A stretch of DNA of 64,000 nt from Candidatus Spongiisociaceae bacterium (GCA_965262915.1 OZ253564.1:3872001-3936000); one strand, 5' to 3'. Positions 10,233-49,133 are shown, numbered from the stretch's first letter. The notes: generated by a model from the sequence alone, not told the origin. Translations and numbers: made by a program.

Positions 10233-12593
10233 CTAAGCACCTCCACTCGCCGCTCGATCGATGAAACCCAGTACTCTCTCCGGCGTGAGCGGGAGTTCGT
10301 TGACGAACACTTTGCCGATAGGGCGGATGGCGTCCTGAACCGCCGCGGCCATGATGGCGTAGGGAGCGACCGCGCCGCCTTCTCCTACCCCTTTGATGCC
10401 GTTGGGACTGGTCGGTGAGAGAGTCTTGAGGTGGCTTATCTCGAATTTGGGCAACTCGGTCGGCCCGGGAATCAAGTAATCCATGAATGAGGTGGTCAGC
10501 AACTGGCCCTCCTCGTCGTAGATGAGCTCCTCGTATAACGCACCGCCGATACCTTGGGCGACGCCTCCGTGGATCTGGCCCTCGACAATGGTCGGGTTGA
10601 TCATCTGACCGCAGTCCTCGACGATGTGGTATTCGAGGATCTCCACCGCTCCGGTCTCGGCGTCGACCTCCACGAGGACGATCTGGGACGCATTGGCGTA
10701 CGTGCCGTGGCCCGAATCGAACGTCCCGGCCGCTTCCAGCAACGGACTCCATCCGAACGGGAACCGCTCGGGGTGGTAATAGGTGGCCCTCGCCACCTCC
10801 CCCACAGACAGCCCCCGGGTCCCGGACCCTCGAACGGTCACACGGCCGGCTACGAACTCGACATCCTCCGCCGCGGCTTCCATCAGGTGGGCGCCTCGTT
10901 CGAGCACCATCTCCTTGACCTCGCCCGACGCTATGTGCGCGGCTCCCCCGGCCACCACCGCCGAGCGGCTGGCGAAGGTACCGATACCCTGGGCCGTCTG
11001 CTGGGTGTCTCCGTAGAGGATCCGGATGTGCTCCATGGGGATCGTCAGCTGGTCGGCCACGATCTGGGCGATGGTTGTCTCGTGCCCCTGTCCATGGGAG
11101 TGGGTTCCGAGCTGCACGGTCGCCGAGCCGGACGGGTCAAGGCGGACGATGGCCGAGTCGTACCTGAAGTTGATCGGCACACCCTCGTCCACGGCCGGTG
11201 CGGTCTGCTCGATGAAGGTGACCACCCCGATGCCGAGGAGGCGTCCCTCCTCGCGGGCGAGGCGCTGGCGTTCCCGCATCCCTTCGTAATCGGCCTCGGT
11301 ACGCACCTTGTCCAGCGACTCGATGAGGCTCGCATTGTCATATACGAAACCCGTCGCGGACGTGTACGGGAACTCCTCGTCCCGGATCAGGTTACGTCGC
11401 CGCACCTCGACGGGGTCCATGCCGAGAGCATCCGCCACCGCGTCCATCGCCCGTTCGACCGTCAGGCAGTTCGCAGAACGGGCTACCCCCCGGTAGGCGC
11501 CGTACGGGCACTTGTTGGTGGCGACTCCGGCTGCCTCGCATCGGAAGTTCCTTATCCGGTACGGCCCGGGCATGATGAACAGCGACATCCCCGGATCCAG
11601 GGCGGCCGTCCACGGATACACCGAGTAGGCGCCACAATCGACCGTCACCCGCGCGCTCAGGGCCAGAACCTCCCCCTCCTCGGAATAGGCCACCCTGGCG
11701 TTGTGGTAATGCTCCCGGGAGTGGAAACACGCGAGCATGTGCTCCCGCCGGTCCTCGATCCACCGGACCGGACACCTTGCCTCCATGGCAAGCACGCATA
11801 CGGCGACCACTTCGGGGTCCAGGTGTGACTTAGGCCCGAAGCCGCCGCCCACGTCGGGGGCGATCACCCGTATCCGATTCTCCGGCATGTCGAAGCAGAC
11901 GGCGAGTTCACTTCTGATCATGTGAGGGATCTGGGTTGCGTTCCACAAGGTGAGCACCCGTTCGATGGGGTCGTAGCTGGCAATGCAGCCCCGGCCTTCC
12001 ATCGGGATGCCGCCGTGACGCCGGGTCGCGACTTCGAACTCCACCACCCCGTACGCATCGGCAAACGCCTGATCGGGATCGCCCGACACGAGCCGGTCCT
12101 TGTAGAAGTAATTGTCCTTCCATCCCTCATGGAGAGGCGCGGCCGTAGGCTGCTGAGCCGCCTCCACCGACGGGAGCGGGGTGAGCGGCTCGTAGTCAAC
12201 GTCGACCAAGGCTGCACCATCCTCGGCGAGGTACCGGTCGTCGGCCGCAACCACCGCCACCGCCTCACCGACGTACCGAACCCGGTCAATGGCCAGGGCG
12301 GGGTATTCCGAGCTTTGCCAGCCTTCGGCGATCGCGTCGCAGACCGTGGGTTTGACCCGACCCACCAAGTCCTGCCCGTGCAAGGCGGCCACCACTCCCG
12401 GAACCGCCAAAGCCTCCGAGACATCGACCGAGGTGATCTCGGCATGGGCGAAAGGGCTCCGTACGAAAGCGGCGTCGATCATCCCCGGCAGCTCGATGTC
12501 CTCGATGTAGCGGGCCTTGCCCATCAGAAAACGGGGGTCTTCGACCCGCCGGACCCGGGCACCGAGCAGGGTCGGCTGCTTGGCGTATGTCAT
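10233..12593 (-). CDS. Xanthine dehydrogenase family molybdopterin-binding subunit (L1)
   Basis: RRVEDPRFL, VGGGFGPK, active-site loop AYRGVAR, HGQGHET, GTFASRS, KGVGEGG. Confidence 0.93.
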   Translation of the reverse strand: MTYAKQPTLLGARVRRVEDPRFLMGKARYIEDIELPGMIDAAFVRSPFAHAEITSVDVSEALAVPGVVAALHGQDLVGRVKPTVCDAIAEGWQSSEYPALAIDRVRYVGEAVAVVAADDRYLAEDGAALVDVDYEPLTPLPSVEAAQQPTAAPLHEGWKDNYFYKDRLVSGDPDQAFADAYGVVEFEVATRRHGGIPMEGRGCIASYDPIERVLTLWNATQIPHMIRSELAVCFDMPENRIRVIAPDVGGGFGPKSHLDPEVVAVCVLAMEARCPVRWIEDRREHMLACFHSREHYHNARVAYSEEGEVLALSARVTVDCGAYSVYPWTAALDPGMSLFIMPGPYRIRNFRCEAAGVATNKCPYGAYRGVARSANCLTVERAMDAVADALGMDPVEVRRRNLIRDEEFPYTSATGFVYDNASLIESLDKVRTEADYEGMRERQRLAREEGRLLGIGVVTFIEQTAPAVDEGVPINFRYDSAIVRLDPSGSATVQLGTHSHGQGHETTIAQIVADQLTIPMEHIRILYGDTQQTAQGIGTFASRSAVVAGGAAHIASGEVKEMVLERGAHLMEAAAEDVEFVAGRVTVRGSGTRGLSVGEVARATYYHPERFPFGWSPLLEAAGTFDSGHGTYANASQIVLVEVDAETGAVEILEYHIVEDCGQMINPTIVEGQIHGGVAQGIGGALYEELIYDEEGQLLTTSFMDYLIPGPTELPKFEISHLKTLSPTSPNGIKGVGEGGAVAPYAIMAAAVQDAIRPIGKVFVNELPLTPERVLGFIDRAASGGA

Positions 12594-13105
12594 GCGGTCC
12601 CCCCCGCCGGGGAGGGTCTCGCCATCCGTTCAGCCGCCGCCTTCACCGAGTCGACGATGAATACGTACCCGGTGCACCGGCAGAGGTTGCCCGCAAGAGC
12701 TTCCCTTATCTCGGCCTCCGAAGGGTCCGGGTTCTCCTCCAGGAGGGCCTTGGCGGTGAGCACCATGCCGGGCGTGCAGAAGCCGCACTGCAAACCGTGG
12801 TGGTCCCAGAAGGCCTGCTGAACGGGATGCAGATGATCGGGATCGCTAGCCAACCCTTCGATCGTTTGGATTTCGGCCCCGTCAGCCTGCACGGCGAACG
12901 TCAGGCAGGATCGTACCGTCTCGCCGTCGATCACCACCGTGCAGCTCCCGCAAACACCGTGCTCGCATCCGAGATGTGTCCCGGTCAGGCCCAGGTTCCG
13001 GCGCAGGAAGTCGGCAAGCAGCAGGCGTGGTTCGACAATGGCCCGGTGCATGCGTCCGTTCACGGTGAGGCTGATGGCCACATCCTGTTGGACCGGATCA
13101 ACCAT
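12590..13105 (-). CDS. (2Fe-2S)-binding small subunit (CoxS-like)
   Basis: GCEHGVCGSCTV, QCGFCTPG, NLCRCTGY. Confidence 0.95.
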   Translation of the reverse strand: MVDPVQQDVAISLTVNGRMHRAIVEPRLLLADFLRRNLGLTGTHLGCEHGVCGSCTVVIDGETVRSCLTFAVQADGAEIQTIEGLASDPDHLHPVQQAFWDHHGLQCGFCTPGMVLTAKALLEENPDPSEAEIREALAGNLCRCTGYVFIVDSVKAAAERMARPSPAGGTA

Positions 13106-13973
13106 GCTTCAACTCCGGTCGGCCCACCGCCTCTTGAAGCGCTCTGCGGGTCAGGGTCAGAACCAGCCGACGCCGGTAGTCGGCTGATCCGTGGATATCC
13201 GACATCGGGTCGACGGTCTCCCCCGCGGCGACCGCGGCGGACTCGATGGTCTCATCGTCGGGGGAGGAACCGACGAGCACTCGCTCCGCTGCGAGAGCGC
13301 GCCTGGGAGTGGCTTCCACTCCCCCCAACCCGATCCTGGCCGAGGTCACCCGACCGGCACCGATCCTCAGGACGGCCGCCACCATCACCACGGCGAAGTC
13401 TCCCACCTTCCGAGCGAACTCCTTGAAGCCCCACCGCTCATCGGGACGGATCCGGGGGACCTGCACGGATGACACTATCTCGTCGGGAGCAAGCGTCGTG
13501 GTCATGTGATCCAGAAAGAACTCATCCGCACCAATGGTCCGCCCTCCGTTGGCCCCCACCGCGTGGATATCCGCTCCCAGAGTGACGGCTACACAGGGGA
13601 GTTCGGAGGCCGGGTCGGCATGGGCCAGGCTCCCGCCCATCGTTCCCCGGTATCGGATCGCCCGGTAACCGATATGGCCCGCCGCGTGGCTGAGCAGGGG
13701 CGCTCCACTCATGATCCGAGGCGAAGTCGCCACCGTGTGGTGTCGCGTCATGGCCCCGATTGTCAGATGGTCGTCGTCAGACTTCACGAAGGCGAGCTCG
13801 TCCACCCGGTTGAGGTCCACCAGCACCGCAGGCCGGGCCAGCCGCAGGTTCATGAGCGGGACCAGGCTCTGCCCGCCGGCGAGCAACTTGGCCTCGTATC
13901 CGTGCTCATCGAGCAGGAAGATCGCCTCCTCCAAGGTTCGGGGAGCAAAATATGCGAACTCGGCCGGTTTCAT
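13098..13973 (-). CDS. FAD-binding medium subunit (CoxM-like)
   Basis: MKPAEFAY, AGGQSLVPLMNLRLARP, RGTMGGSLAHADP. Confidence 0.95.
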   Translation of the reverse strand: MKPAEFAYFAPRTLEEAIFLLDEHGYEAKLLAGGQSLVPLMNLRLARPAVLVDLNRVDELAFVKSDDDHLTIGAMTRHHTVATSPRIMSGAPLLSHAAGHIGYRAIRYRGTMGGSLAHADPASELPCVAVTLGADIHAVGANGGRTIGADEFFLDHMTTTLAPDEIVSSVQVPRIRPDERWGFKEFARKVGDFAVVMVAAVLRIGAGRVTSARIGLGGVEATPRRALAAERVLVGSSPDDETIESAAVAAGETVDPMSDIHGSADYRRRLVLTLTRRALQEAVGRPELKHG

Positions 13974-13987
13974 ATGGAGATCTCCGC

Positions 13988-14890
13988 CTAGGAGTGTCTG
14001 TCGAGGCTTCGCAGGGTGGCGACGGAATGGGCCGCCAGCACCGCGACGAGGATGAGCCCGCCCACGACCGTAGGGAGGGCCGGTACCTCATCGACGACCA
14101 TCCAGACCCACAAGGCCCCGAGCACTGTCTCGAGCAGGAGGAACAGGGCCACTTCGGCAGCAGGGATGAACCTCGGTCCGGTGGCTATGAGGCCGAAAGC
14201 TATCGGTACGACAAAGAGGCCGAGGGCGATGAGATACATCCAGTCCTGGGAACCGGCGGACGCCGGATGGGAGGCCGGCAAGCCCACGAGAGCCGCCAAC
14301 CCTGCTCCTAAGGCCACCGCCGGGACCATATTCAGCGTAGGATTGGCCCTCAGCACCACCAGCGTCCCGCCGATGGCTGCTGACGCGATCAGACCGGCAA
14401 TAGTGCCCGAGAGGTCACCCTCTACCAGCGATCCGAGCATGATGATCAACGTAGCCACCGCTCCCCCTGCGATAGCCAGCCAAGTGCGTCTCGGAACCGC
14501 CTCCCGCAGCACGATGCGGGTGAACAGGCCGGCGAACAGCGGGCTGAGGCTGATAAGGAGAAGGGTGTTCGCCACCGAAGTGTGGGTGATCGAATAGATG
14601 AACCCGACGTTGTCGATCGCAAACAGCACTGCTGCGAGGACCCCGGCCAGGCCCATCGAGCGCAGTTGGCCCCTCCACTTTCCCCGCTCCACCACCAGAA
14701 AGAACACGAAGAGGCCCGGGGACGCGAGCAGGCCTCGCAAGAAGAGCAGCGTCCACGGATCGACCTCGATCAACCGGATCAGAACGCCTTCGACGCTGAG
14801 AACCAGAACCCCGATGAACGTGATCAGCAACCCGAACCCCGCAGGTGACAGACCCCGGTACGGCTGCCGTTGGGAGGGCTTAGCCGTCAT
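13988..14890 (-). CDS. DMT/EamA family transporter
   Basis: Hydrophobic; TSVANTLLLISLSPLFAG, GPRFIPAAEVALFLLLE; start uncertain (14890 or 15019). Confidence 0.85.
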   Translation of the reverse strand: MTAKPSQRQPYRGLSPAGFGLLITFIGVLVLSVEGVLIRLIEVDPWTLLFLRGLLASPGLFVFFLVVERGKWRGQLRSMGLAGVLAAVLFAIDNVGFIYSITHTSVANTLLLISLSPLFAGLFTRIVLREAVPRRTWLAIAGGAVATLIIMLGSLVEGDLSGTIAGLIASAAIGGTLVVLRANPTLNMVPAVALGAGLAALVGLPASHPASAGSQDWMYLIALGLFVVPIAFGLIATGPRFIPAAEVALFLLLETVLGALWVWMVVDEVPALPTVVGGLILVAVLAAHSVATLRSLDRHS

Positions 14891-15252
14891 GCAGGCTCCG
14901 GAGGGAACGTGGTTCGGGTTGCCGAGACCCGAACCCGATGGTTGTGTGGGTGGGGTATCCGGCTCGGGCCGGACCGAACCGGTCGGGATGGTTCCGGTAC
15001 ATGGCTCGGGTTGGTTCAAGTCCTGCTCGACACCGAGCAGCAGACAGTTTGTGGGTCATCTGGGCAGCCGTTCGACTAGACCATCCGGAGGATAACCCTT
15101 CGCCGGCGAGCCGAGTGCCCGGTGGGCACCTTCCTTGGAACCATCAACCGGGTCTGGAGATCCATTGCGAACCACCTCGGCCCGCTTGTGCAGATCGCGA
15201 AACTCGCCGCGACCGACCGCGCGCCCACGGACGATTCGGGACGCGACTAGGC

Positions 15253-15622: not shown

Positions 15623-17029
15623 TCATGTTCCGTCCACGGACCGCCACTCGGTGAGGTAGTCCGAGAGATCCATATCCTCCCAGACATCCCTCGGGACATC
15701 CGCACGTTCCTCGAACGGAGCCTCGACCGGTTTCGTGGCGTCGATGGCCCACTTGGTGTTCATGGTGTCCTTCTCCCAGCGGCTCCAGATCGAGTACGAG
15801 GCAGGATCGAGCCGCGAGGTCGCGGACTCGGGAACGAAGAACGTGGAGCGATCCGGCTGGGTCCTGGTGGCGATGGCCCACAGAACCTCGGCGTCGTTGT
15901 GGATGTCGACATCCTCGTCGACGACAACCGCGAGCTTCACGAAGGGATCCGACGAGAGCGCCGCCAAGGCAGCGAGCTTGCCCGCTCCGTCGTACTCCTT
16001 GCATATCCGGACGTACGCGTGGAACCGGCATATACCGGACATCGGCATCGCCACGTCGATGACCGACGGGACGGCGGCCTTGACCCTCTTGTAGAGAACC
16101 GACTCCCTCCCGAGCCGCCCGGTGAGGTTGTGCTCCGGGTGCGCCGCGAAGAGATGGTGGAAGATCGCATCCTTGCGATGGGTGATGGCGGTCACCTCCA
16201 TCACGGGGCTCGGGCGCTCCAGCCCGTAGTACCAGGTGAACTCGCCGTAGGGACCCTCACCGATGCGCTCGTGGGGAAGGATCCGACCCTCTATCACCAC
16301 CTCGGCGTGGGCGGGAACCAGCACGTCCACCGTCTTGGCCATGGTGACCGCCAAAGGCTCTTTGAGCAGCCCGCCCATGACCTCGTACTCGTCCTCGCCG
16401 AAGGGGATCTTCGACTGGCAGCCCAGCAGGCAGGCCGGGTGATGACCGATCCAGGTCACCACCTCCAGCGGCTCGCCCCGTGCCTCGAAGGGCCGATGCA
16501 CCTGGCCGATGTGGGTGTGCTTCTCGTAGCTCATGCCCAGCGTATTGCGGGAGTGGACCATCATCCGGTAGATGCCGGAGTTGAAATTGTCGGTTCCGGG
16601 ATGCCGGACGGTGGTGATACCCGCGCTGATGAAGGGCCCGGAGTCCTTCCCGCAGTTGGTCACTATGGGGACCTCATGGAGGTTCACGTCCTCGGCCGGG
16701 ATGACAACGTCGTGGACCGGTCCCGTGTCGACCACCTCATAGGGAATGCGGGCGTCCTCCCGGTCGATATAAGCCTTCGTCATCTCGGTGGGCGTAGTCT
16801 CGAGCGCCTCGGCCAGCAAGGCGGCACTGCCCAAGACGTTGGAGATCGTTCGTAGCTTCGATCCCTCCACAGATTCGAAGAGCACCGCCGGGTAGCGGCC
16901 CTCCGACTGCAGTTTCCGCAGCACCCCGGGGAGTTCGAATAGCGGACTGACCGGCCGTGAGACACGAACCAACTCGGATGGAGCGTTCGTCTCGACACGC
17001 TTGAGGAAACTCCTCAGGTCCTTGGCCAC
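15623..17029 (-). CDS. UbiD family prFMN-dependent (de)carboxylase 1
   Basis: KDLRSFL, NSGIYRM, EGPYGEFTWYY, VVVDEDVD, VLWAIATR, IDATKP; GTG start after GGAGGGAG. Confidence 0.93.
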   Translation of the reverse strand: MAKDLRSFLKRVETNAPSELVRVSRPVSPLFELPGVLRKLQSEGRYPAVLFESVEGSKLRTISNVLGSAALLAEALETTPTEMTKAYIDREDARIPYEVVDTGPVHDVVIPAEDVNLHEVPIVTNCGKDSGPFISAGITTVRHPGTDNFNSGIYRMMVHSRNTLGMSYEKHTHIGQVHRPFEARGEPLEVVTWIGHHPACLLGCQSKIPFGEDEYEVMGGLLKEPLAVTMAKTVDVLVPAHAEVVIEGRILPHERIGEGPYGEFTWYYGLERPSPVMEVTAITHRKDAIFHHLFAAHPEHNLTGRLGRESVLYKRVKAAVPSVIDVAMPMSGICRFHAYVRICKEYDGAGKLAALAALSSDPFVKLAVVVDEDVDIHNDAEVLWAIATRTQPDRSTFFVPESATSRLDPASYSIWSRWEKDTMNTKWAIDATKPVEAPFEERADVPRDVWEDMDLSDYLTEWRSVDGT

Positions 17030-17405
17030 GAAACACTCCCTCCCTCGTATGCGGGTTGCCGGACGGATGCTAGCCCACGGAAGTCGGCCCCGTTGCGCGC
17101 CTCCGAACTCCTGCCGGAGCAGCACCGAACATCAATGATCCTCATTACCTACCTATCAATCGCCCTCCGACTGATCCGACAACAGGATGGCCCGAGACAA
17201 CCACCCGACCGCCTGCTACCCCGACATGGCGAGAATCACCCGGACAAGGCACCCGGCGAGGAGCCAATCCGTCAACGGAGACACCCGCGCGCGGCTGCCC
17301 GCTCTTGTGAGGGTCCCCGAATGGGTGCTCACCTTGGGGGAACAGAGCATGCGACGATTCATGAGTTGACATCGATTACCAGGTGTTTCCCGATCTGCGG
17401 CCGGA

Positions 17406-17557
17406 TAGGGCTAACGACAGGAGCGATCGACCTCCGCCTATCGCCCGTGTAGTCATTTCGAGGCGGCTGCTGGTCGAGAAACCCCAGGTCATCGCGGGCG
17501 GCTCTTGAAATGTCGCAACCCGTGTCTCCCCAGGTGAGCACCTATCCGCTAGCCCTC
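17406..17557. mobile_element. Degenerate MITE-like element, family A, copy 4
   Basis: Right end CCCCAGGTGAGCACCTATCCGCTAGCCCTC-TAAG matches copy 2; left end AGGGCTAACGACAGG is eroded. Confidence 0.65.
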
Positions 17558-17628
17558 TAAGATGCTTGATCACCGAACATCGCACCACGACATCTCGAGT
17601 CCTTCCGCCCATCGAGGGGAGCAAATAG

Positions 17629-18723
17629 GTGACCATCATCGAGAACCGCAAGCGCGAACACATCGAGCTGGCGCTCTCGGAAGGTTCTCAGAGTCGTTGC
17701 TCCGCACTCTGGGAGGATGTTCGCCTCGTACCCGAGTCCGTACCGGATATCGGCCCGACCGACGTGGATCTCTCCGTCGAGTTCCTCGGCCATCGGCTGT
17801 CCACCCCGCTCGTGATCAGCGGGATGACGGGAGGACACGCGCGAGCGCTCGAGATCAACCGGAATCTGGCGGTGGCAGCCGAGGAGTTGGGGCTCGCGAT
17901 CGGGGTCGGCAGCCAGCGGGCTGCCTTGGCGAACCCGAACCTTATCGACACCTACTCGGTCATACGCACTCGGGCTCGCGGAGCGTTTGTCATCGGCAAC
18001 ATCGGCATGAGCCAACTGGTAGGCCAGAACGGCGATCCGCCGCTGGGCAGGGCAGAGATCGAACAGGCGGTGTCCATGATCGATGCCGACGCACTAGCCG
18101 TCCATCTGAATGCGGTCGAAGAACTCATACAGCCTGAAGGCGACCGGAACATGAGAGGGCTAACCGCCGGGATCGGCAACGCCGTGCGGTGGTCACCCGT
18201 TCCTGTCATCGGCAAGGAAACGGGTGCCGGCATGGCGAGAGAGTCGGCCACCAAGCTTGCCGCAACGGGTGTGGCAGCCCTCGATGTCGGAGGCGCAGGA
18301 GGTACGAGCTTCGCCCGGATCGAGGCCCTCCGTGCGCAGGCGGTGGACGACACGACCGGTGTAAGGATCGGACGGACCTTCGCCGACTGGGGGCTTCCCA
18401 CCGTGCTTTCGCTCCTCGAGGCGGGATCGGCGGGACTGCCGTTGATCGGTACGGGCGGGGTACGCAACGGACTCCATGCCGCCAAGGCCATGGCCCTGGG
18501 TGCATCTCTCGTCGGAATGGGCGGCCCCTTCATTCGAGCTGCGCTCACGGGCCCCGAAGCTGTCATCGCAGAGGGGCGGCTGGTGCTCGAAGAACTCAGA
18601 GTGGCGATGGTCCTGACGGGTGCGAGGGACATCGCTTCGCTTCGTGGGATGCAACCCGTGCTGGTGGGGAGGGTGGCGGAATGGCTCGCCTCGAGGCGCA
18701 GGACCGGCTCATCAGGATCATGA
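17629..18723 (+). CDS. fni: Type 2 isopentenyl-diphosphate delta-isomerase (FMN-dependent)
   Basis: RKREHI, ISGMTGG, GVGSQR, GNIG, HLNAVEELIQPEGDRN, KETGAG, GAGGTSF, GGVRNG. Confidence 0.93.
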   Translation: MTIIENRKREHIELALSEGSQSRCSALWEDVRLVPESVPDIGPTDVDLSVEFLGHRLSTPLVISGMTGGHARALEINRNLAVAAEELGLAIGVGSQRAALANPNLIDTYSVIRTRARGAFVIGNIGMSQLVGQNGDPPLGRAEIEQAVSMIDADALAVHLNAVEELIQPEGDRNMRGLTAGIGNAVRWSPVPVIGKETGAGMARESATKLAATGVAALDVGGAGGTSFARIEALRAQAVDDTTGVRIGRTFADWGLPTVLSLLEAGSAGLPLIGTGGVRNGLHAAKAMALGASLVGMGGPFIRAALTGPEAVIAEGRLVLEELRVAMVLTGARDIASLRGMQPVLVGRVAEWLASRRRTGSSGS

Positions 18724-18747
18724 CCGAGGGGAAACGAGGGAGGCCGG

Positions 18748-19221
18748 ATGTCACGGATTGAAGACAGCGAGCTCAGCCCCGACCTGATGGATCTGCTCGA
18801 CGGAACCGACCTTGACAGCAAAGTGGGCGAGACCGTTCTCCTCCTGACCGTCAGCGAGACCGGCTGGCCCCACCTTGCCATGCTGAGCGTCGGCGAGTTG
18901 CTCGCTGTGCAGCCCGACGAGGTGCGGATCGCTCTGTGGTCCGGCACCCGAACCGGCAACAACCTGCGCCGCACCTCCAAGGGAACTCTGGCCCTCGTAC
19001 ACGGCGGCGCCGGCCACTACATCGAACTGCAGGTAACCGATGCGGGAACTCTCGAAGTCGGCAGCAAGGCCCTGGACTCCTTCTCCTGCAGCGTGACGAA
19101 GGTCCTCTCCGACGTCGTGGGCTACGCGAAGCTGACCACCGGCATCCGTTTCGAGCTTCCCCGACGGGAAGCTGTGGTACCTCGTTGGGAACGCACCGTG
19201 GCGGCAATGCGGACCGCCTGA
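18748..19221 (+). CDS. Pyridoxamine-5'-phosphate-oxidase-like FMN split-barrel protein, PhdC/YclD-like (candidate prFMN maturase)
   Basis: LLTVSETGWPHLAMLSVGE, RIALWSGTRTGNNLRR, YAKLTTGIRF; resemblance to YclD/PhdC recognised by eye. Confidence 0.72.
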   Translation: MSRIEDSELSPDLMDLLDGTDLDSKVGETVLLLTVSETGWPHLAMLSVGELLAVQPDEVRIALWSGTRTGNNLRRTSKGTLALVHGGAGHYIELQVTDAGTLEVGSKALDSFSCSVTKVLSDVVGYAKLTTGIRFELPRREAVVPRWERTVAAMRTA

Positions 19222-19442
19222 CGATTGACCTTCCCACCCGCCCGTGAGGTAGAAACAGAAAGAGGGCCGGCCCCGGACGCCGCACTTCGATACCTCCTCT
19301 TGCCGGTGGTCGGAGTTCGTCGGGGCTGGTCGACGACGTGTACAACATCGGACCCATCTATCCGTCGGACAGCCCACGCTCAATCCGGACAGATCGCGAA
19401 AACCGCCGCGCTAGTCCTCGACCTCAGGCCCACAGCCCCGGC

Positions 19443-20222
19443 CTACTCCCGGAGTCCGGCCCGAATCTCGTTGACCAGACGGAAGAAGCGGTCGTCTTCG
19501 CGCGTCCGCTCATCCCTCGGATGCGGCAGATCGATGTGTCTGTCGAGAACTATCTTGCCGGGCCTCGGACTCATCACCAGGACGCGGTTGGAGAGGAACA
19601 CGGCCTCGGGAATCGAATGCGTGATGAAGAGGATTGTGGTGTGGGTGGTTTCCCAGATCCGTTGCAGTTCGGCATTCATACGTTCTCTCGTGATCTCGTC
19701 CAGAGCACCGAAGGGCTCGTCCATCAGCAAGATGTCGGGGTTGAACGAGAGGGCACGGGCGATCGACACCCGCTGCTGCATACCACCCGAGAGCTGCCAG
19801 GGGCTCTTGCGAGCAAAGTCGTCGAGGGCGACCAACTCCAGCATCTCCGTAGCGCGGCGACGACGCTCGGCCCGGCTGAGGCTCATCACCTCCAGGGGAA
19901 GCTCGACGTTTCGTCGAACCGAACGCCATGCATACAGCACGGGGTTCTGGAAGACCACGCCGATGGCCCGGCTCTGCCTGGCTTCCCGAGCGCTCTGGCC
20001 TGCCACCCTGATCGACCCGGACGACGGAGGCAACAGGTCGGCTATCAGTCTGAGCATGGTCGACTTGCCACATCCCGAAGGTCCGACGATCGAGACGAAC
20101 TCGTTCTGCCCGACTGAGAACGAGATGTCCTCCACCGCGACGACAGCATCGTAGGTTTTACCGAAGCGCTTGGTGACATCGCGCACCTCTATGGCGTGAG
20201 CAACATTGTCAACTGTGGCCAT
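19443..20222 (-). CDS. NitT/TauT family ABC transporter ATP-binding protein
   Basis: GPSGCGKST, LSGGMQQRVSIARAL, MDEPFGALD, ITHSIPEAVFLS. Confidence 0.93.
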   Translation of the reverse strand: MATVDNVAHAIEVRDVTKRFGKTYDAVVAVEDISFSVGQNEFVSIVGPSGCGKSTMLRLIADLLPPSSGSIRVAGQSAREARQSRAIGVVFQNPVLYAWRSVRRNVELPLEVMSLSRAERRRRATEMLELVALDDFARKSPWQLSGGMQQRVSIARALSFNPDILLMDEPFGALDEITRERMNAELQRIWETTHTTILFITHSIPEAVFLSNRVLVMSPRPGKIVLDRHIDLPHPRDERTREDDRFFRLVNEIRAGLRE

Positions 20223-20493: not shown

Positions 20494-21861
20494 TCACCGC
20501 ATTCCCAACCACTGCGACCAATCCGGGACCTGGTCGACACCTGGGATCTCCACCACCTCGGCGAACTCTGCGCCATACGGAATCGTCGCATCGATGCCCA
20601 TCAGCGACGACCCGAACTTGCTCGGCGCGGAGGGGTCGAGCTGGCCTCCGGCCGCGCGCGGGATGATGATCACGTCTTCCGCAGGCTGAGCACGCGTGAG
20701 CACCGCCCACCAGACCTTGGCGGTGTCATAGATATCGATGTCGTCGTCCACCACTATCACCACCTTCGGATGTGCAACGCTTCCCAGGGCTGCCAGCAGC
20801 ACGTTCTTCGCCTGGTTCACGTACCGCTGCTTCATACCGATGACCGCCAGGAACTCCGCCCCGCCCTCCGGCGCGTAGCGGACCCCGGTGATATCGGGAT
20901 ATACCTGCCTCATGGCCTTCAGCAGGTTGGCTTCCATCGGAAGCAGCTTGAGGACGTGGTTCTCCGTTACCGGGATGCCGGTCAGCCCGGCCTGGTAGAT
21001 GGGGTCGATGCGGGAGGTGATCGCGGTGCACGTGAACACCGGCTCGGGCCCTCCGGGCCCTACGTAGCCGGTCATCTCCCCGAACGGTCCTTCTTCACGC
21101 CGAACGTGAGGTTCGAGGTATCCCTCGATGACCAACTCGGACGTAGCCGGCACCTCCAAGTCTATTGTCCGGCATTTTACGAGCTCGACGGGCGATCCGT
21201 GCAGCCCTCCCGCTATGGCAAGCTCGTCAACACCGAAGGGCACCCGGGCCTGCGTCGCCAGTTGGATTACCGGGTCCACACCGATGGCCACGGCTACCTC
21301 CAGGCGCTGTCCGAGCTCTTCGGCGTGGGTACGGATTGCATCGAAGTCCGAGTATGGGCTGACGGCCAACCCCATTTCGGTGGGACCGTAGAGCTGCATC
21401 CGGTAGATGCCGGCATTCCGCTCGCCGCTGATCGGGTCTCTGGCTATCTCGACCCCCACTGTGATGAACGGGCCGGGGTCCTGTTTCGAGTACGTGGGGA
21501 TGGGAAGGGTGGTGAGATCGACGTCATCGCCGGTGATGACGATCTCCTGGCACGGCCCGTCGTCCACGAGCACCGGCGGGATGGGATTGTCCAGGCCGTT
21601 GATGAACACCTCGAGCGCGTCGCCCGGTCCGGCCGCCCGTAGCGCATGCTCGGCCTTGGACGGTGAGCAGAAGACGCCTGCCGCCACCCTCATCTCGCTC
21701 CCCTTTGCTTCATCGAAGAGGAAGGCCGGCCCCAGCATGTCGGAGCTCTTCCGTATGTACGCCGCTACCTCGTAGAGAGGGTCGACAGGTCCCGGGATAT
21801 GGGCAAGCTCGCCCTTGTCGGACAGGTAGCTCAGAAACCCGCGCAGATCCTTGTGCAGCAT
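20494..21861 (-). CDS. UbiD family prFMN-dependent (de)carboxylase 2
   Basis: KDLRGFL, NAGIYRMQ, EGPFGEMTGY, IVVDDDID, LDPSAP, GIDAT. Confidence 0.93.
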   Translation of the reverse strand: MLHKDLRGFLSYLSDKGELAHIPGPVDPLYEVAAYIRKSSDMLGPAFLFDEAKGSEMRVAAGVFCSPSKAEHALRAAGPGDALEVFINGLDNPIPPVLVDDGPCQEIVITGDDVDLTTLPIPTYSKQDPGPFITVGVEIARDPISGERNAGIYRMQLYGPTEMGLAVSPYSDFDAIRTHAEELGQRLEVAVAIGVDPVIQLATQARVPFGVDELAIAGGLHGSPVELVKCRTIDLEVPATSELVIEGYLEPHVRREEGPFGEMTGYVGPGGPEPVFTCTAITSRIDPIYQAGLTGIPVTENHVLKLLPMEANLLKAMRQVYPDITGVRYAPEGGAEFLAVIGMKQRYVNQAKNVLLAALGSVAHPKVVIVVDDDIDIYDTAKVWWAVLTRAQPAEDVIIIPRAAGGQLDPSAPSKFGSSLMGIDATIPYGAEFAEVVEIPGVDQVPDWSQWLGMR

Positions 21862-21873: not shown

Positions 21874-21974
21874 GGAGGGTGGTCAAGACCTCCGGTTGGC
21901 CCGGCGGTCGATGAGAAAATACCTGGTCAGTGGACGACGGGCCAACCATCTACCGGTTTTTTTGAGCACCCTCC
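21874..21974. mobile_element. MITE-like element, family B, copy 2 (101 bp, divergent interior), inside the TAG stop of the upstream gene
   Basis: TA-GGAGGGTGGTCAAGA...TTTTGAGCACCCTCC-TA; internal GGTTGGCCCG/CGGGCCAACC stem. Confidence 0.8.
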
Positions 21975-24397
21975 TATTGTCGAAGTCGATCGGCCGGCGA
22001 ACCCGTCGCCGTAGCGGCCCGAATGGCTTCCCAGACTCTTGAGGGCGTCATCGGGATCTCGTTGATGCGAGCGTCATAGTCGCGGAGCGCGTCCTCGACG
22101 GCGCTGACCACCGAGCTCAGCGCGCATCCGAGCCCGGACTCCCCCGCACCCTTCGTACCCAGCGGCGTGAATGGTGACGGGTAGACCTGGTGGGCGACCT
22201 CTACGCGTGGCATCTCGACCGCGGTCGGGATCGTGTAGTCCATGAGGGTGGCGGTCTGGATCTGGCCGGACTCGTCGTATCTGATCTCCTCGTACAGGGC
22301 ACCGCCCAGCGCCTGGGCGGTCGCCCCGTGCAGGTTCGCATCGACGAGCAACGGGTTAACGATGTTCCCCGCGTCCTCGACCAGGTAGTAGTCGAGCACC
22401 TCGACCATGCCCGTCTCCGGATCCACAGCCACGACGCACGCAGCCGCAGCGCTCGGCCAGGTCGGGTAGGCGTTGAACCGTCCCTGGGTGGCCGGCTGGT
22501 GGTAGATGTTCTCGGCCCGGTAGTAACGGGTCACCTCCAGCCCGGGCTCGACGTTCTCGGTGGCCGGGCCGTAGGGCCGCCTGTACATCTCGTCCGCGAC
22601 ATCCGAGATACGGACCGAACGCTGCTGAGCACCGATCACGCTGATGCGGCCGTCCGAAGCTTCCAGATCCTCCGGCGAAACCTCCAGCATGTTGGCGGCC
22701 ACCTTCATGAGCCGGGCCTTCAGCTCGGCCGCAGCCTTGCCGACCGCCGACCCCCCGATGATCACGCCTCGCGAGCTGTAGTTCCCGAGACCCCAGGGAC
22801 AGATGACGGTGTCCCCCTGCACAACTCGCACGTCGTCGAACCGGCAGCCCAGACTGTCGGCCGCGATCTGTGCCAGGGCCGTCTCGTTCCCGTTGCCCGG
22901 AGAGGTGACGCCGCTCAACACGGTGACCTCCCCGGTAGGACCTACCCGCACGGTCGCTCCGTCGTACGCGGATATCATCACCGAGCCCGGCATGGCGCAT
23001 CCCTCGGGTGTGAGTTCATAGCCGATCCCGATGCCGATATGGCGGCCCCGCTCGCGCTCGCCCCGGCGGCGCTCCTCGAACCCTTCGTAGTTGACCAACT
23101 CCATCGCGGCCCGCAGGGTTGCGTGGTAGTCACCGCTCCCTATGATGCCGCCCCCCTCCCGAGCGAAGGGGAACTCCTCGGACCGCAGGAAGTTACGCAT
23201 CCGTACCTCTCCTCGGTCGAGGCCGGTTGCTCGCGCCACTTCATCCATCACCCGTTCGAGCCAGAGATTGGCGATGTCCTTGCCGAAGCCTCGGTAGGAG
23301 TTCCAGGGCGTCTTGTTGGTGACGACCGTGGTCAACCGGACGCGGGTGTTGGGAATGCGGTACGGGCCGGGAATGAGGCCGCTGGCGGCGAAGGTCATGC
23401 CCCATCCGACCAGGCTGGTCGGAGCACCCACGTCGGCGAGGATCCGAACATCGATACCGGTTACCACACCTTGGTCGTCATAACCGGCCTTGACCCTGGC
23501 CGTCATCTCGCGAGCGTGACCTATGGATGCGAAGTTCTCGTCGCGCGACTCGATCCACTTGATGGTCCGGCGAAGCTTGAAGGCCAGGTAGGCGATGAGC
23601 GGCTCTTCTTGGAAGGTCGGCTGTTTGAGCCCGAACGCTCCACCCACCTGCGGCTGTATCACCCTGATACGGGATTCCCGGATGCCCAGAGTCTGGGCAA
23701 GATAGACGCGTAGGGGATGCGGGTTCTGGGTGGAGTCCCAAAGCGTGAGGGTCTCCCGTTTGCGATCGAAGGAAGCGAGCAAGCCCCGCGGCTCGATGGG
23801 AACACCCGTTCCACGATTGCTCGTGACCTCGGTTTCGACGATTCCCTTCGCTTCGGCGAACGCATCGGCAACGTCGCCCACCTTGAGGTCGCGTCTCACC
23901 AGGACGTTGGTGCCCCAGTCGGGCTCGACAAGCGCCGCACCCGGTTCGAGAGCAGCCCCCACATCGGCGACGGCCGTGAGAGGCTCGTAGTCCACATCGA
24001 TGTGACCGAGAGCAAGATTCGCAGCGTGCTTCGTCTCCGCGACGACCGCCGCCACCGCCTCGCCGACGTAGCGAGCCCGATCAACGCACAACGCGTACCA
24101 CCGGACCTGGTGGGCGCCGATGGCAGCCGTGTCCCAACCCTGAGGTATCGGGTTGGTGTGAGCCGCGATCTCGGCGCCGGTGACAACGGCCACAACGCCG
24201 GGGAGTGCCTCAGCACGCGACGTGTCGATAGAGCAGATCAGGGCATGGGCGTGCGGGCTGCGGAGGACCGCCATGAAGTTCATGACGCCGGGAGGCCGGA
24301 CATCGTCCACGTAGATGCCCCGGCCTGCGACCAGAGTCCTGTTGGTGCGACCCGGGTAGCGCTTCCCTACGTGGGTGTCGGCAGCAGGAGAACTCAT
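21974..24397 (-). CDS. Xanthine dehydrogenase family molybdopterin-binding subunit (L2)
   Basis: VGGAFGLK, SYRGFGK, GNGNETALAQ, GNYSSR, KGAGESG. Confidence 0.93.
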   Translation of the reverse strand: MSSPAADTHVGKRYPGRTNRTLVAGRGIYVDDVRPPGVMNFMAVLRSPHAHALICSIDTSRAEALPGVVAVVTGAEIAAHTNPIPQGWDTAAIGAHQVRWYALCVDRARYVGEAVAAVVAETKHAANLALGHIDVDYEPLTAVADVGAALEPGAALVEPDWGTNVLVRRDLKVGDVADAFAEAKGIVETEVTSNRGTGVPIEPRGLLASFDRKRETLTLWDSTQNPHPLRVYLAQTLGIRESRIRVIQPQVGGAFGLKQPTFQEEPLIAYLAFKLRRTIKWIESRDENFASIGHAREMTARVKAGYDDQGVVTGIDVRILADVGAPTSLVGWGMTFAASGLIPGPYRIPNTRVRLTTVVTNKTPWNSYRGFGKDIANLWLERVMDEVARATGLDRGEVRMRNFLRSEEFPFAREGGGIIGSGDYHATLRAAMELVNYEGFEERRRGERERGRHIGIGIGYELTPEGCAMPGSVMISAYDGATVRVGPTGEVTVLSGVTSPGNGNETALAQIAADSLGCRFDDVRVVQGDTVICPWGLGNYSSRGVIIGGSAVGKAAAELKARLMKVAANMLEVSPEDLEASDGRISVIGAQQRSVRISDVADEMYRRPYGPATENVEPGLEVTRYYRAENIYHQPATQGRFNAYPTWPSAAAACVVAVDPETGMVEVLDYYLVEDAGNIVNPLLVDANLHGATAQALGGALYEEIRYDESGQIQTATLMDYTIPTAVEMPRVEVAHQVYPSPFTPLGTKGAGESGLGCALSSVVSAVEDALRDYDARINEIPMTPSRVWEAIRAATATGSPADRLRQ

Positions 24398-26868
24398 CGT
24401 CGTTCCTCCTCTTCCGATCGAGCCCGCGCCGCCCTGATGGCGTTCCAGACCCGCGCAGGGGAAAGCGGCAGTTCCTCGAACCAGACCTCAAGATGGGGAA
24501 ACGCATCTTCGATCGCGTTGCACACCGCTCCAAGCGCCGCGCCGAGCCCCGACTCTCCCACCCCCTTGGCGCCCAGCGGTGTGAAGGGGGACGGGGTGTG
24601 TTGATGCCGGACATCGAAGCGGGGAAGCTCCACCGCCGTGGGAATCGTATAATCCATGAGCGTGGCTGTGATCAACTGCCCGTTGTCGTCGTAACTCACC
24701 TGCTCGTAGAGCACGCTTCCGAGACCCTGAGCGATACCCCCGTGCATGGTGGCATCGGCTAGTAGCGGATTGATAACGGTGCCCGCATCCTCGACCATGC
24801 AGTACCGGAGGATCCTCACCCCGCCCGTATCCGGATCGACCTCGACTATGCACGCGGCCATACCGTTGGGCCAGGTCGGATAGACAGAGAAGCGGCCATC
24901 TCGCTCAGGCTGGTGGTAGATGTTGGATATCCGGAAATAGCGGGTTGCCTCCAGCCCGGGCTCCACCAGATCGGCATGTTCCTCGAAGGCATGCCAGTAG
25001 ACACGCTCCACCACCTCGGAGAACTCGACGGAGCGCGCCGGCTCTTCCACGATCCAGATGCGCCCATCCGCGGCGGCCAGGTTCTCCGGCTCGGTGGCCA
25101 GCATGGACGCCGCTACCTTGTGCATCCGCTGCCGCAGCTCCCGGCCGGCCTCGAAAACAGCCGACCCTCCGATGATGATGCTGCGCGAGCTGTAGTTTCC
25201 CAGGCCCCACGGGCAAGACTCCGTGTCTCCCTGTACGACGGTGACAAGGTCGATATCGCATGCAAGGGTGTCGGCGGCAATCTGGGCCAGCGCTGTCTCG
25301 TTACCGTTGCCCGGGGAGGTGACCCCGGTCAGCACCATCACCTCCCCGGTGGGCATGACCCTTACGGTCGCCCCGTCATACCCGTTGTTGGTGATGCTCC
25401 CCGGCATGGCCACCCCTTCGGGTGTGAGTTCCTGCCCGATACCGAGCCCGATGTACCGTCCCTCGGCCCGGGCGGCCGCCTGCATCCGGCGAAACTCCGA
25501 GTATCCGATCGACTCCAGGGCCGTATCGAGTACCTGCTCGTACGCCCCGCTGTCGAGCATGGCTCCGGACGCCTGGGAGTAGGGGAAGGCATCGCTAGGA
25601 ATGAAGTTACGGCGCCGCACATCGGCGCTCGGTATTCCGAGACTGCGGGCCACCTTCTCTACGACCCGGTCCATGAGGAAGGACGCTATGTCCTTCCCGA
25701 ACCCCCGATACGGGGTCCAGGGGCACTTGTTGGTCACGACGCTGGTGAGGTGGACGCGGACGTTGTCGATCTCGTACACGGTGGGAAGGGAGTACATGGT
25801 CACGTACGACATTCCCCAACCCAGATAGGACGTGGGCGCTCCGACATCGGCGACGATCTCGACCGAGAGCGCGGTGATGTTCCCATCCGACTCGAACCCC
25901 ACCCGGTACCGGCACTCGGTCTCCCTGGCGTGGCCCCCGACCATGAAGCTCTCGGACCGGCTCTCCAACCACCGAAGGGGCTTCTGCAGGCGGCGAGCCG
26001 CGAACGCAACGATCACCTCCTCCTGGGAGGTCGGTTGCTTCAGGCCGAACGCACCGCCCACATCGGTCTGGATGACCCTTATGGAAGCCTCCCGCACCCC
26101 CAGGGAAGCAGCCAGGAAGGTCTGCACCTGATGAGGTTGCTGGGTTGATTCCCAGAATGTGAGCAGATCCGCGATCGGGTCGTACTCGGCCACGATGCCG
26201 CGCGGCTCGATCGGGACGCCGGTCAGGCGCTGGGACTTGACCCGTCCCGCGGCCGTGTGCTCCGCCGACGCGATGGCGACTTCGAAGTCCCCGGTTTCGA
26301 AGCCGTCGGACACGAGGATGTTGTCCTCCCACGACGGTTCGACCTTGACGGCTCCCGGACGGAGGGCCTCTTCGGCGGAGCTGATGGCGTCAAGGATCTC
26401 GTACTCGGCGTTCACATGCCCGGCAGCGGCCCTGGCGGTGTACGGGTCGGTTGCGACGACCGCTGCTACCGCTTCGCCCAGATACCGCACCCGTCCCTGG
26501 GCTAGCGCGTACCAGTCCACCCCCCTCGCTCCCGCTTCGGCCGTGTCCCAACCTTCCGGGATCGGTCGTGTTCCCTCCGCGACGTCGGTCGGGAGGATCA
26601 CGTCGACGACGCCTTCGATAGCCAGCGCTTCCGATGCGTCCACGGACAGGATCCGCGCATGGGCATGAGGGCTCCGCACCACCGTCAGGTAATGCATGTC
26701 GGCACGGTCGAGATCGCCCACGTATTCGCCGTCGCCACGCGCCAGCCGCCGGTTGTTGGCACCTACCCGAGGAGTTCCCACCGCCCTCAGCACGAGGTGT
26801 TCGACACCCGGACCTGGCCGGGTCATGGAAGACGGTCGGGTGAGCGGCATGGGCCGGTCCCATGGCAT
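24394..26868 (-). CDS. Xanthine dehydrogenase family molybdopterin-binding subunit (L3), paralog of L2
   Basis: VGGAFGLK, PYRGFGK, GNGNETALAQ, GNYSSR, KGVGESG; 4-nt overlap with L2; exact start uncertain. Confidence 0.92.
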   Translation of the reverse strand: MPWDRPMPLTRPSSMTRPGPGVEHLVLRAVGTPRVGANNRRLARGDGEYVGDLDRADMHYLTVVRSPHAHARILSVDASEALAIEGVVDVILPTDVAEGTRPIPEGWDTAEAGARGVDWYALAQGRVRYLGEAVAAVVATDPYTARAAAGHVNAEYEILDAISSAEEALRPGAVKVEPSWEDNILVSDGFETGDFEVAIASAEHTAAGRVKSQRLTGVPIEPRGIVAEYDPIADLLTFWESTQQPHQVQTFLAASLGVREASIRVIQTDVGGAFGLKQPTSQEEVIVAFAARRLQKPLRWLESRSESFMVGGHARETECRYRVGFESDGNITALSVEIVADVGAPTSYLGWGMSYVTMYSLPTVYEIDNVRVHLTSVVTNKCPWTPYRGFGKDIASFLMDRVVEKVARSLGIPSADVRRRNFIPSDAFPYSQASGAMLDSGAYEQVLDTALESIGYSEFRRMQAAARAEGRYIGLGIGQELTPEGVAMPGSITNNGYDGATVRVMPTGEVMVLTGVTSPGNGNETALAQIAADTLACDIDLVTVVQGDTESCPWGLGNYSSRSIIIGGSAVFEAGRELRQRMHKVAASMLATEPENLAAADGRIWIVEEPARSVEFSEVVERVYWHAFEEHADLVEPGLEATRYFRISNIYHQPERDGRFSVYPTWPNGMAACIVEVDPDTGGVRILRYCMVEDAGTVINPLLADATMHGGIAQGLGSVLYEQVSYDDNGQLITATLMDYTIPTAVELPRFDVRHQHTPSPFTPLGAKGVGESGLGAALGAVCNAIEDAFPHLEVWFEELPLSPARVWNAIRAARARSEEEERR

Positions 26869-27275
26869 CGACCTGTTGCCGGGGACCGCAGCCCGGAGAT
26901 GGCCCGCGCCACAGAGACGGAAGCCACCGACGTCACGAGGGATACGTCAGGTAGCGAACAACAGGATCCGACGGCGTATGGCATCGTGGGCATCCTATCC
27001 GACGACCGCTCACGGATCGGAGAGGTGGCGGGTGTCGTGCGGCGAGTTGGGGTCTTAGGTTCGAGAACCACCCGAGCGGATCGTATGCGGAGGTCGCGCC
27101 GGGACTCTATATAGACCGGTCCGATCCACACATCTCCCTACAACCGTCTAACCCTTCCGGGGGCGCTGACTCCCGGAACGACCCATCGTCGTCCGGCGCC
27201 AAACCGGCGACCACCCCACTGTGATAGGTTGTGATCGGCAGACGACGCACCTTTTCAGACAGTGAGAGAGACCGG

Positions 27276-32967: not shown

Positions 32968-33111
32968 GAGGGTGCGCTGGTAGGTGCTCACCGGGGGAAA
33001 CAGCGAGTACGACCGTTGACGAGTACACACCGATGACCAGGGGTTCTTCGATCTGGAGCCGGGTAGGTCCATTGACAGGGGCGGTTACGGTCCGCCTACC
33101 CGCGCACCCTC
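32968..33111. mobile_element. MITE-like element, family A, copy 3 (144 bp)
   Basis: TAA-GAGGGTGCGCTGGTAGG...CCTACCCGCGCACCCTC-TAA; highly similar to 2590-2734. Confidence 0.88.
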
Positions 33112-33477: not shown

Positions 33478-33532
33478 ACCGGGACTGTAACAGCCCCTCG
33501 CGCGCAACGCGCAGGTTAACAACCACTAACTA

Positions 33533-49081: not shown

Positions 49082-49133
49082 GGATCCCCTTTCCGTGCCG
49101 CTCTCGGCCGGCGGAGGTCCACGTCCGTCGTTG

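Follow-up and report, generated by a model that had tools for sequence, protein, structure and literature searches.

A Glu-type isopentenyl diphosphate isomerase gene paired with a PhdC-like maturase gene in a UbiD-rich catabolic island

Gene arrangement at the locus

The subject of this report is a pair of genes in a 64,000-nucleotide stretch of the genome of a Candidatus Spongiisociaceae bacterium (GCA_965262915.1 OZ253564.1:3872001-3936000), the whole of which we call the window. The first gene, fni, encodes a member of the type 2 isopentenyl diphosphate (IPP) isomerase family, IDI-2. The second encodes a small protein that resembles PhdC, a maturase of the prenylated flavin mononucleotide (prFMN) cofactor on which UbiD-type (de)carboxylases depend. 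The two genes lie back to back with a UbiD gene, and the window, a catabolic island of 64% G+C, also contains the gene for the flavin prenyltransferase UbiX:

15623-17125, minus strand: UbiD-1, prFMN-dependent (de)carboxylase (Pfam UbiD_N, UbiD and UbiD_C; TIGR00148, 330 bits)
17126-17628: intergenic region between the divergent starts of UbiD-1 and fni, 503 nt
17629-18723, plus strand: fni, type 2 IPP isomerase family, Glu164 subtype (TIGR02151 IPP_isom_2 equivalog)
18724-18747: spacer between fni and the small gene, 24 nt
18748-19221, plus strand: PhdC-like prFMN maturase homologue, 157 aa, co-oriented with fni
48518-49081, minus strand: UbiX flavin prenyltransferase (NF004685, 260 bits)

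The original prediction, made from the sequence alone, read these genes as a dedicated prFMN supply module, and its coordinates for UbiD-1, fni, the small gene, two more UbiDs and UbiX are all exact. It had also remarked that the island holds no other isoprenoid-pathway gene, and we likewise saw no further isoprenoid-pathway family among the window open reading frames (ORFs) in a Pfam scan that took in the likely genes of the window. The promoters of both UbiD-1 and fni presumably sit in the 503-nt divergent region, which is poorly conserved among close relatives; a consensus scan of 17000-19600 returned no sigma-70-like sites and no intrinsic terminators. The start of the PhdC-like gene, an ATG with a GGGAGG-type ribosome site, is kept in relatives. 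The best solved relative of UbiD-1 is 6h6v (E=1.6e-79), which we take to be Pelotomaculum HmfF, a furandicarboxylate decarboxylase.

The genome is assembled as a single contig of 5.06 Mb, with one fni, one UbiX gene, one PhdC-like gene and five UbiD genes, three of the last within the window and one 12 kb past its right end. With two UbiDs outside the window, a single UbiX and a single PhdC-like gene thus serve five UbiDs. IspH and Dxs of the methylerythritol phosphate (MEP) pathway score above their cut-offs, and no mevalonate kinase scores over cut-off in the genome. The prediction had called for a search for a second, housekeeping idi; no type 1 idi was found in this genome, and fni (profile score 366.9 bits) is its sole IPP isomerase gene. 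An IPP isomerase is not essential in an organism that uses the MEP pathway. The nearest relatives in our genome collection are metagenome-assembled genomes (MAGs) labelled Acidimicrobiia or Ca. Spongiisociaceae.

Recurrence of the gene pair

The neighbourhood surveys described in this section were anchored on the PhdC-like protein, and neighbours were identified by tblastn with the window proteins in flanks of up to 10 kb. Among 21 PhdC-like loci of the genome collection, fni is nearby in 10 and directly adjacent in seven, UbiX is nearby in 12 and UbiD in 17; an eleventh fni lies 10.2 kb from the PhdC-like gene on the same contig (L026). Gene orders vary. Nocardioides endophyticus (L034) has ubiD-fni-phdC-like-ubiX on one strand, and a Thermoleophilaceae MAG (L033) has fni-phdC-like-ubiX with stop/start overlaps; orthologues of UbiD-1 with 44-47% identity lie in or near both of these cassettes. 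Locus L022 has fni-ubiX with the PhdC-like gene 6 kb distant, and in L029 fni is convergent. The fni-linked hosts are labelled Acidimicrobiia, Thermoleophilia, Actinomycetes, Terriglobales, Dormibacterota and Chloroflexota; at phylum level, fni is linked to the PhdC-like subfamily in Actinomycetota, Acidobacteriota, Dormibacterota and Chloroflexota.

Metagenome loci carry fni in 13 of 56 cases by script (14 with L133) and UbiX in 26 of 56, counts to be read with the knowledge that the contigs are often short and that some loci are probably duplicates of MAG loci. The fni beside the PhdC-like gene of one Chloroflexi MAG (L030, 3-924) matches in two pieces, 3-398 and 418-924, which suggests a frameshift or an assembly error.

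Fni and its Glu subtype

The fni product scores 367 bits against TIGR02151 (cut-off 281.3; E=7.4e-110), which bears out its predicted place in the type 2 IPP isomerase family, and it aligns over its full length to IDI-2 of Sulfolobus shibatae (2ZRU, E=1.8e-65). Residues R7, K8, H11, H159, N161, E165, G68, G69, G222, G224 and T226 are invariant in 41 of 41 aligned Fni. We take the N-terminal R-K-x-x-H to be diphosphate-binding; this and the other functional labels of the Fni motifs are our assumption.

The window protein nevertheless departs from an ordinary IDI-2. Its residue 164 is Glu, in the motif HLNAVEELIQPEG, and a gapless alignment pairs it with Gln at chain position 160 of 2ZRU, in HLNPAQEVFQPEG. 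This Gln belongs to the motif H-x-N-x-x-Q-E and is present in all five solved IDI-2 structures.

The difference tracks genomic context. Glu occupies the site in 21 of 21 linked Fni that cover it (the window, 10 genome loci and 10 metagenome loci); four further linked Fni end before site 164 and stand outside this count. Gln occupies it in all 102 compared copies encoded away from prFMN genes, a set that consists of 32 Actinomycetota copies (including L058 and L074), 65 Gln-type Chloroflexota copies, and L141, L143, L146, L219 and L220, with four Glu-type Chloroflexota copies that have no prFMN neighbours tallied separately. The Glu state is rare: with a Glu-type Fni profile as query, it was found in 3 of 135 parsable motifs among the 150 nearest 50%-identity cluster representatives (1.84 billion proteins). 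Three genomes, from Terriglobales (G407), from Dormibacterota (G408) and that of locus L026 (G484), have a Glu copy in the module and a Gln copy away from prFMN genes. Two others (G406 and G409) have a PhdC-like gene and UbiX without a nearby fni, and their sole fni, elsewhere in the genome, is Gln-type.

A maximum-likelihood tree built from 41 Fni places all 10 linked proteins, together with one unlinked protein of the same class (L058), in a clade with support 97/95, apart from the 30 others; the split L030 gene and L074, which has a short alignment, are not in the tree. The clade is marked by KETGAG, GGTSF and TGG, as opposed to KEVG[FH]G, mostly GGTSW, and SGG in the other Actinomycetota Fni compared.

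Two further surveys were anchored on fni itself. In the Actinomycetota control, flanks of about 10 kb to either side of fni were taken from 32 of the 34 further genomes that carry the gene (G273 was left out, as was G278, whose fni is cut by a contig end); a UbiX, UbiD or PhdC-like gene lay near fni in 0 of 32. The Chloroflexota survey covered 401 genomes, of which 207 have an fni of any kind; a Glu-type Fni profile gave 73 matches at E<=1e-115, from which 71 loci were taken, and 134 genomes with an fni that scored under the profile threshold are outside the Gln/Glu classification. Sixty-five of the 71 loci are Gln-type, none of them linked, and six are Glu-type, two of them linked (L150 and L157). 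Pooled over both surveys, linkage is seen for 3 of 7 Glu-type and 0 of 97 Gln-type fni (Fisher p=1.9e-4), a value that overstates the case because the genomes are related and not independent. Glu-type Fni is a distinct subtype, strongly enriched beside prFMN genes, yet not confined there.

The four unlinked Glu-type fni have as neighbours genes for an NMT1-like binding protein and an acyltransferase (twice), a flavin reductase, or a molybdenum hydroxylase and a coenzyme A (CoA) ligase. In L152 (1919-4214) and L155 (8977-12489), the gene for the NMT1-like binding protein adjoins the Glu-type fni, and the shared context includes a gene for an acyltransferase resembling the malonyl-CoA-acyl carrier protein transacylase; in L152, Flavin_Reduct and NUDIX genes are present as well within 5 kb of fni, the NUDIX gene at 4 kb. 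The linked locus L150 (G484:C25, 5111-17352) is the same as L026. It is a very dense prFMN island: three UbiD paralogues surround its Glu-type fni, and UbiX and the PhdC-like gene follow 10 kb along the same contig.

A review lists a Gln of this motif ('Gln161') among the substrate-adjacent residues and reports that alanine mutants of IDI-2 active-site residues retain 1-35% efficiency (PMC3509576). The residual efficiency implies that the motif Gln need not be essential. The residue numbering of that review is to be taken loosely, since its labels Ser9 and Gln161 for the S. shibatae enzyme do not match the 2ZRU chain index (Val9, and Gln160/Glu161). In the literature searched we found no IDI-2 paper on the role of the motif Gln (Gln160), and PMC4930227 is silent on the residue. 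Because the other family-invariant residues are intact, the sequence suggests that Glu-type Fni is most likely a working isomerase.

The small protein resembles PhdC

Pfam returns only a sub-threshold PNPOx_N match (E=0.004) for the 157-residue protein. A phmmer search of the PDB reaches 9SRG at E=4.9e-7 over residues 12-98 (2.3e-8 in a family-profile search), and the significant PDB sequence matches number only three, named merely as PNPOx-domain proteins. Entries 9SRG, which is FMN-bound, and 9SRJ are the prFMN maturase PhdC of Mycolicibacterium fortuitum (PMC13040415), to which the small protein is about 26% identical.

An AlphaFold (AF2) model made from 28 homologues has a pLDDT of 94. Its best nine Foldseek matches in the PDB are all PhdC entries, with template modelling (TM) scores of 0.72-0.75, and VIA-align superposes it on PhdC with Z=16.4-16.8 and a root-mean-square deviation of 2.5-3.0 over 141-144 residues, the C-terminal helix included. 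The top VIA-align match is an uncharacterised Exiguobacterium protein (2q9k, Z 18.2), which at a guess is YclD-like; generic split-barrel proteins reach Z <=12 and true flavin reductases about 9. Sequence and fold searches against the PDB thus agree that the small protein belongs with PhdC, as predicted, and not with an unrelated PNPOx family.

Four residues of PhdC are regarded as key: Glu47, Phe126, Glu136 and Trp138 (PMC13040415). The equivalent of Glu47 is E50, which all 28 of the 28 family members share and whose column is conserved in 18 of 18 sequences from three PhdC-like subfamilies; it aligns with 9SRG chain position 47, which is Ala in 9NK3 (the 'E45A mutant', Glu45 in the 9NK numbering). 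F135, at the position of the prenyl-pocket aromatic Phe126, is F or Y in 18 of 18, and its 12-residue spacing to the Trp is constant. The equivalent of Trp138, W147, is invariant. The Glu136 of the ExW motif has no counterpart: the window protein has Pro145 at W-2, and the position is variable across the subfamily, with D-R-W at the ExW site of mycobacterial-type relatives (L082 and L083). An Asp, D122 in the window protein, is invariant in all three PhdC-like subfamilies compared, the mycobacterial type included. Since the ExW glutamate is missing, we call the protein PhdC-like rather than a strict PhdC member, despite the same fold and genomic company.

PhdC and YclD boost the activity of UbiDs that self-mature poorly, and PtHmfF in particular is enhanced by PhdC co-expression (PMC13040415). 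The latter fits the pairing of the HmfF-like UbiD-1 with a PhdC-like gene.

UbiX and the prenyl donor

The window UbiX scores 260 bits against NF004685 (cut-off 188) and 243 bits against TIGR00421 (cut-off 108.9) and is the only match in the genome. Its closest solved relatives are PAD1 of A. niger (6qlg, E=1.3e-53) and UbiX of E. coli O157 (1sbz, E=1.3e-51). UbiX enzymes use dimethylallyl monophosphate (DMAP) or dimethylallyl diphosphate (DMAPP). F181 of PaUbiX blocks the DMAPP beta-phosphate, and this Pseudomonas enzyme is DMAP-specific; the DMAPP-specific A. niger enzyme has Gln at the gate position, and the O157 enzyme, with His164 as its gate, accepts both donors (PMC6541611). His165 of the window UbiX aligns with O157 His164, the Gln of the A. 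niger enzyme (AnUbiX) and F181 of PaUbiX, and is compatible with direct use of DMAPP. Among 45 UbiX encoded beside PhdC-like genes, the gate residue is His in 39, Gln in five, Ala in one and Phe in none, the Ala belonging to the second UbiX copy of L078. Four Actinomycetota loci (L076, L078, L079 and L080) have two UbiX-like genes each, with about 52-57% and 41-47% identity to the window UbiX. No DMAP-making phosphatase or kinase was seen among the Pfam-scanned neighbours in the L033 and L034 cassettes.

Proposed role and alternatives

The gene identities, the operon-like arrangement, its recurrence, the Fni clade and the Gln/Glu dichotomy are direct observations, and the explanation that we favour for them, and regard as fairly probable, is that fni and the PhdC-like gene are a two-gene operon, an optional accessory to the UbiX/UbiD (prFMN) system that serves DMAPP supply and cofactor maturation. 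The MEP pathway would deliver mostly IPP, and the Glu164-type Fni would turn IPP into DMAPP, raising the supply of prenyl donor for the single UbiX, whose pocket appears to be of a DMAPP-permissive type. UbiX would prenylate reduced FMN (FMNH2) to prFMNH2. The PhdC-like protein, probably a dimer, would then act on the prFMN radical or on prFMNH2, oxidising it to the active iminium, and this form of the cofactor would be handed to the HmfF-like UbiD-1 and the four other UbiDs, which may be poor at maturing their own cofactor. Where a canonical Gln-type fni exists elsewhere in the genome, the Glu copy would be the dedicated one; here the Glu copy is the only isomerase. Our literature search, with most subscription journals and supplements outside it, found no paper on an IPP isomerase linked to UbiX/UbiD/prFMN clusters or on an fni-maturase operon, in line with the original prediction. 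The Glu-for-Gln Fni subtype tied to prFMN modules is new; the UbiX/UbiD/PhdC cofactor system is already known.

A number of observations weigh against this explanation or narrow it. In the window, UbiX is 29.8 kb from fni. In three close relatives (L017, L018 and L020), UbiD-1 faces the PhdC-like gene directly and fni is absent; no fni remnant was seen there, and as the intergenic DNA is unalignable, gain and loss of fni are not distinguishable. Two of those relatives (G001 and G002) are without fni or idi anywhere in the genome, so the linkage is optional; the same absence shows that an isomerase is dispensable for housekeeping, which we count in favour of our explanation. Of 401 evenly sampled Actinomycetota genomes, 10 have a PhdC-like gene and 35 have fni, and the overlap is the window's genome only, so that co-occurrence is not enriched; the nine other PhdC-like loci of this sample have UbiX in 8/9 and fni in 0/9. 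By these survey counts the core consists of UbiX plus the PhdC-like gene, with fni as an optional third member. Among the six Chloroflexota Glu-type loci, four lack UbiD, UbiX and PhdC-like genes over a distance of about 9 kb, and Pfam showed no UbiD or UbiX family in their called ORFs within about 7 kb. The Gln-to-Glu change falls in a conserved active-site motif and could lower or alter isomerase activity. The small protein lacks the ExW glutamate. The UbiX gate residue is the same with or without fni and so does not discriminate between the two situations, and mutation of F181 left donor specificity unswitched, so the gate residue alone is not decisive (PMC6541611). Finally, as the sole isomerase, fni may also have a general isoprenoid role in this genome.

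The original prediction therefore survives in part. Conservation of the fni linkage holds for 10 of 21 loci in four phyla, and fails in close relatives and in the nine Actinomycetota loci. The assignment of fni to the IDI-2 family is upheld, with the qualification that the gene is no ordinary recruited IDI-2 but a rare Glu-for-Gln subtype whose chemistry is only predicted. 'Dedicated' is indistinguishable from 'sole' in this genome, and the case for dedication comes from the three genomes that hold a canonical copy besides the module copy (G407, G408 and G484). Direct use of DMAPP by UbiX is compatible with the His at its gate, a residue that is equally common where fni is missing.

A bolder form of our explanation, which we put forward tentatively and consider somewhat improbable, is that Glu-type IDI-2 is an unrecognised third enzyme of prFMN biogenesis, spread across phyla with ubiX and phdC-like genes and adapted to that task by the Gln-to-Glu change. 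The substrate and product of Fni would then set the physiological donor of UbiX, for example DMAPP on demand, or the pair of isopentenyl monophosphate (IP) and DMAP.

Related to this, and in our judgement unlikely, is the idea that Glu-type Fni is a specialised prFMN-biogenesis enzyme with altered chemistry and not a plain IPP/DMAPP isomerase. It could, for instance, interconvert IP and DMAP (the latter being the donor that a DMAP-type UbiX takes), have the carboxylate serve as an acid/base of its own, or work on a flavin-prenyl species. The rarity of the Glu state (3/135 motifs), its replacement of a Gln that is invariant in 5/5 solved IDI-2 and in 102/102 unlinked Fni, and the retention of the Glu-type copy in the module by genomes that have a canonical one all speak for altered chemistry. 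So does the position of the Gln next to the substrate (PMC3509576), and the efficiency kept by alanine mutants in the same source speaks against it. The protein also exceeds the TIGR02151 equivalog cut-off, and the other key residues and the glycine-rich flavin motifs are invariant in 41/41 Fni. An intact R-K-x-x-H, presumed to bind diphosphate, disfavours a monophosphate substrate, and no source of IP is evident in this MEP-pathway genome.

We give still less credence to fni being a general, non-essential IPP isomerase for isoprenoids that owes its position to joint inheritance within a mobile catabolic island rather than to a role in prFMN supply. In favour of this reading, the genome has no other IDI, close relatives keep the decarboxylase genes without it, just 1 of 10 PhdC-like genomes of the Actinomycetota has fni against 35/401 overall, and four Glu-type copies lie away from prFMN genes. 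An accident of inheritance would, however, have to account for an adjacency that recurs in varied gene orders in at least four phyla, for three genomes with a separate canonical copy, for the absence of UbiX, UbiD and PhdC-like genes from the surroundings of all 97 Gln-type fni in the fni-anchored surveys, and for the stop-start overlaps that join fni to phdC-like and ubiX in L033.

It is very unlikely that the small protein is a flavin reductase or an FMNH2 carrier feeding Fni and UbiX, both of which require FMNH2, instead of an oxidative maturase: its fold does fall in the HpaC-like flavin-reductase/split-barrel class (PMC13040415), it lacks Glu136 and its gene is translationally coupled to fni and ubiX in L033, but its nearest solved structures are PhdC and 2q9k with true flavin reductases far behind (Z of 16.4-16.8 and 18.2 against about 9), the equivalents of Glu47, Phe126 and Trp138 are kept in three PhdC-like subfamilies, and PhdC itself is reported to be without the reductase motifs SxxPP and GDH and not to use NAD+ (PMC13040415).

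Relation to known systems

The closest described system is phdABC of M. fortuitum (PhdA, a UbiD-type decarboxylase; PhdB, a UbiX; and PhdC; PDB 9SRG, 9SRJ and 9NK0-4). As in the loci related to the window, a UbiD, a UbiX and a small split-barrel protein come together; the fold of the small protein is the same over its full length, and UbiX is beside the PhdC-like gene in most related loci. The window differs in the roughly 26% identity of its small protein, in the Pro at the Glu136 position, in the added gene of the IDI-2 family, and in the 29.8 kb that separate UbiX from the pair. The PhdC-like subfamily described here reaches beyond Actinomycetota, whereas the published 86 PhdC-like sequences are all from that phylum (PMC13040415).

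YclD, from the vdc (bsd) clusters of Priestia megaterium and Bacillus, is like the window protein a distant PhdC homologue found with UbiD and UbiX genes, and it activates E. coli UbiD in vivo (PMC13040415). YclD keeps both glutamates and not the Trp (PMC13040415), whereas the window protein keeps the first glutamate and the Trp and not the second glutamate.

The canonical IDI-2 enzymes of S. shibatae (2ZRU), Bacillus subtilis (1P0K) and Thermus thermophilus (1VCF) have R-K-x-x-H, H-x-N and the glycine-rich motifs in common with the window Fni. They differ from it at the motif Gln, replaced by Glu164 in the window, and in context, which here is prFMN genes and not mevalonate or isoprenoid genes. 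LpdD, presumably of a protein family other than that of the PhdC-like protein, is a further point of comparison, although we recognised nothing LpdD-like in the window. It is likewise a small accessory for the loading of a UbiD cofactor, being the prFMNH2-binding chaperone of the Lactiplantibacillus gallate decarboxylase (PMC10865409).

The origin of the dimethylallyl group that bacterial UbiX uses, and the choice between DMAP and DMAPP, are unsettled, and poor cofactor loading is the main obstacle to the use of UbiD (de)carboxylases as biocatalysts. A cassette of an isomerase subtype, a maturase and UbiX would be a natural, testable 'cofactor kit'. A single Gln/Glu difference that tracks genomic context almost perfectly offers a handle on both the IDI-2 mechanism and the identity of the donor. 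The survey also extends PhdC-like maturases past Actinomycetota and to a subfamily without one of the two proposed catalytic glutamates.

Other features of the island

The remaining UbiD genes and the neighbour on the far side of the PhdC-like gene are as follows (TIGR00148 cut-off, 244.85 bits):

19443-20222, minus strand: ATP-binding cassette (ABC) transporter ATPase, convergent with the PhdC-like gene and downstream of UbiD-2 (Pfam ABC_tran; NCBIfam NitT/TauT-type)
20494-21861, minus strand: UbiD-2 (Pfam UbiD domains; TIGR00148, 369 bits)
33533-35041, minus strand: UbiD-3 (Pfam UbiD domains; above the TIGR00148 cut-off in a search of its own genome)
G000:C1:3947840-3949135 (the one about 12 kb past the window's right end) and 3490071-3491270: further UbiD genes above the TIGR00148 cut-off

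UbiD-1, UbiD-2 and UbiD-3 each have the three UbiD domains and a TIGR00148 score over the cut-off. The position of the ABC-transporter ATPase gene is kept in L015-L020.

The UbiD genes are interleaved with four genes for large subunits of molybdenum hydroxylases (10233-12593, 21974-24397, 24394-26868 and 28659-30968), two of which are adjoined by FAD and 2Fe-2S subunits (region 10233-15019, 21974-30968), and there are two EamA transporters. Taken with a CoxG-like gene, a DUF6282 gene, an amidohydrolase and PnrA/BMP-type ABC systems, these genes suggest an island for the catabolism of carboxylated N-heteroaromatic compounds. The window has several ABC transporters in all.

Directly downstream of UbiD-3 is a 145-aa ORF (33085-33522, minus strand) of coding-like composition, for which Pfam and the PDB returned no relatives. 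As a second PhdC-like gene it was rejected (BLASTP E=0.64); it could be another UbiD accessory subunit. Three genes for VanA-like Rieske oxygenases, all on the minus strand, lie towards the right end of the window (49134-50108, 58278-59270 and 59386-60483), and the longest ORF of UbiX (48518-49195) overlaps the first of them.

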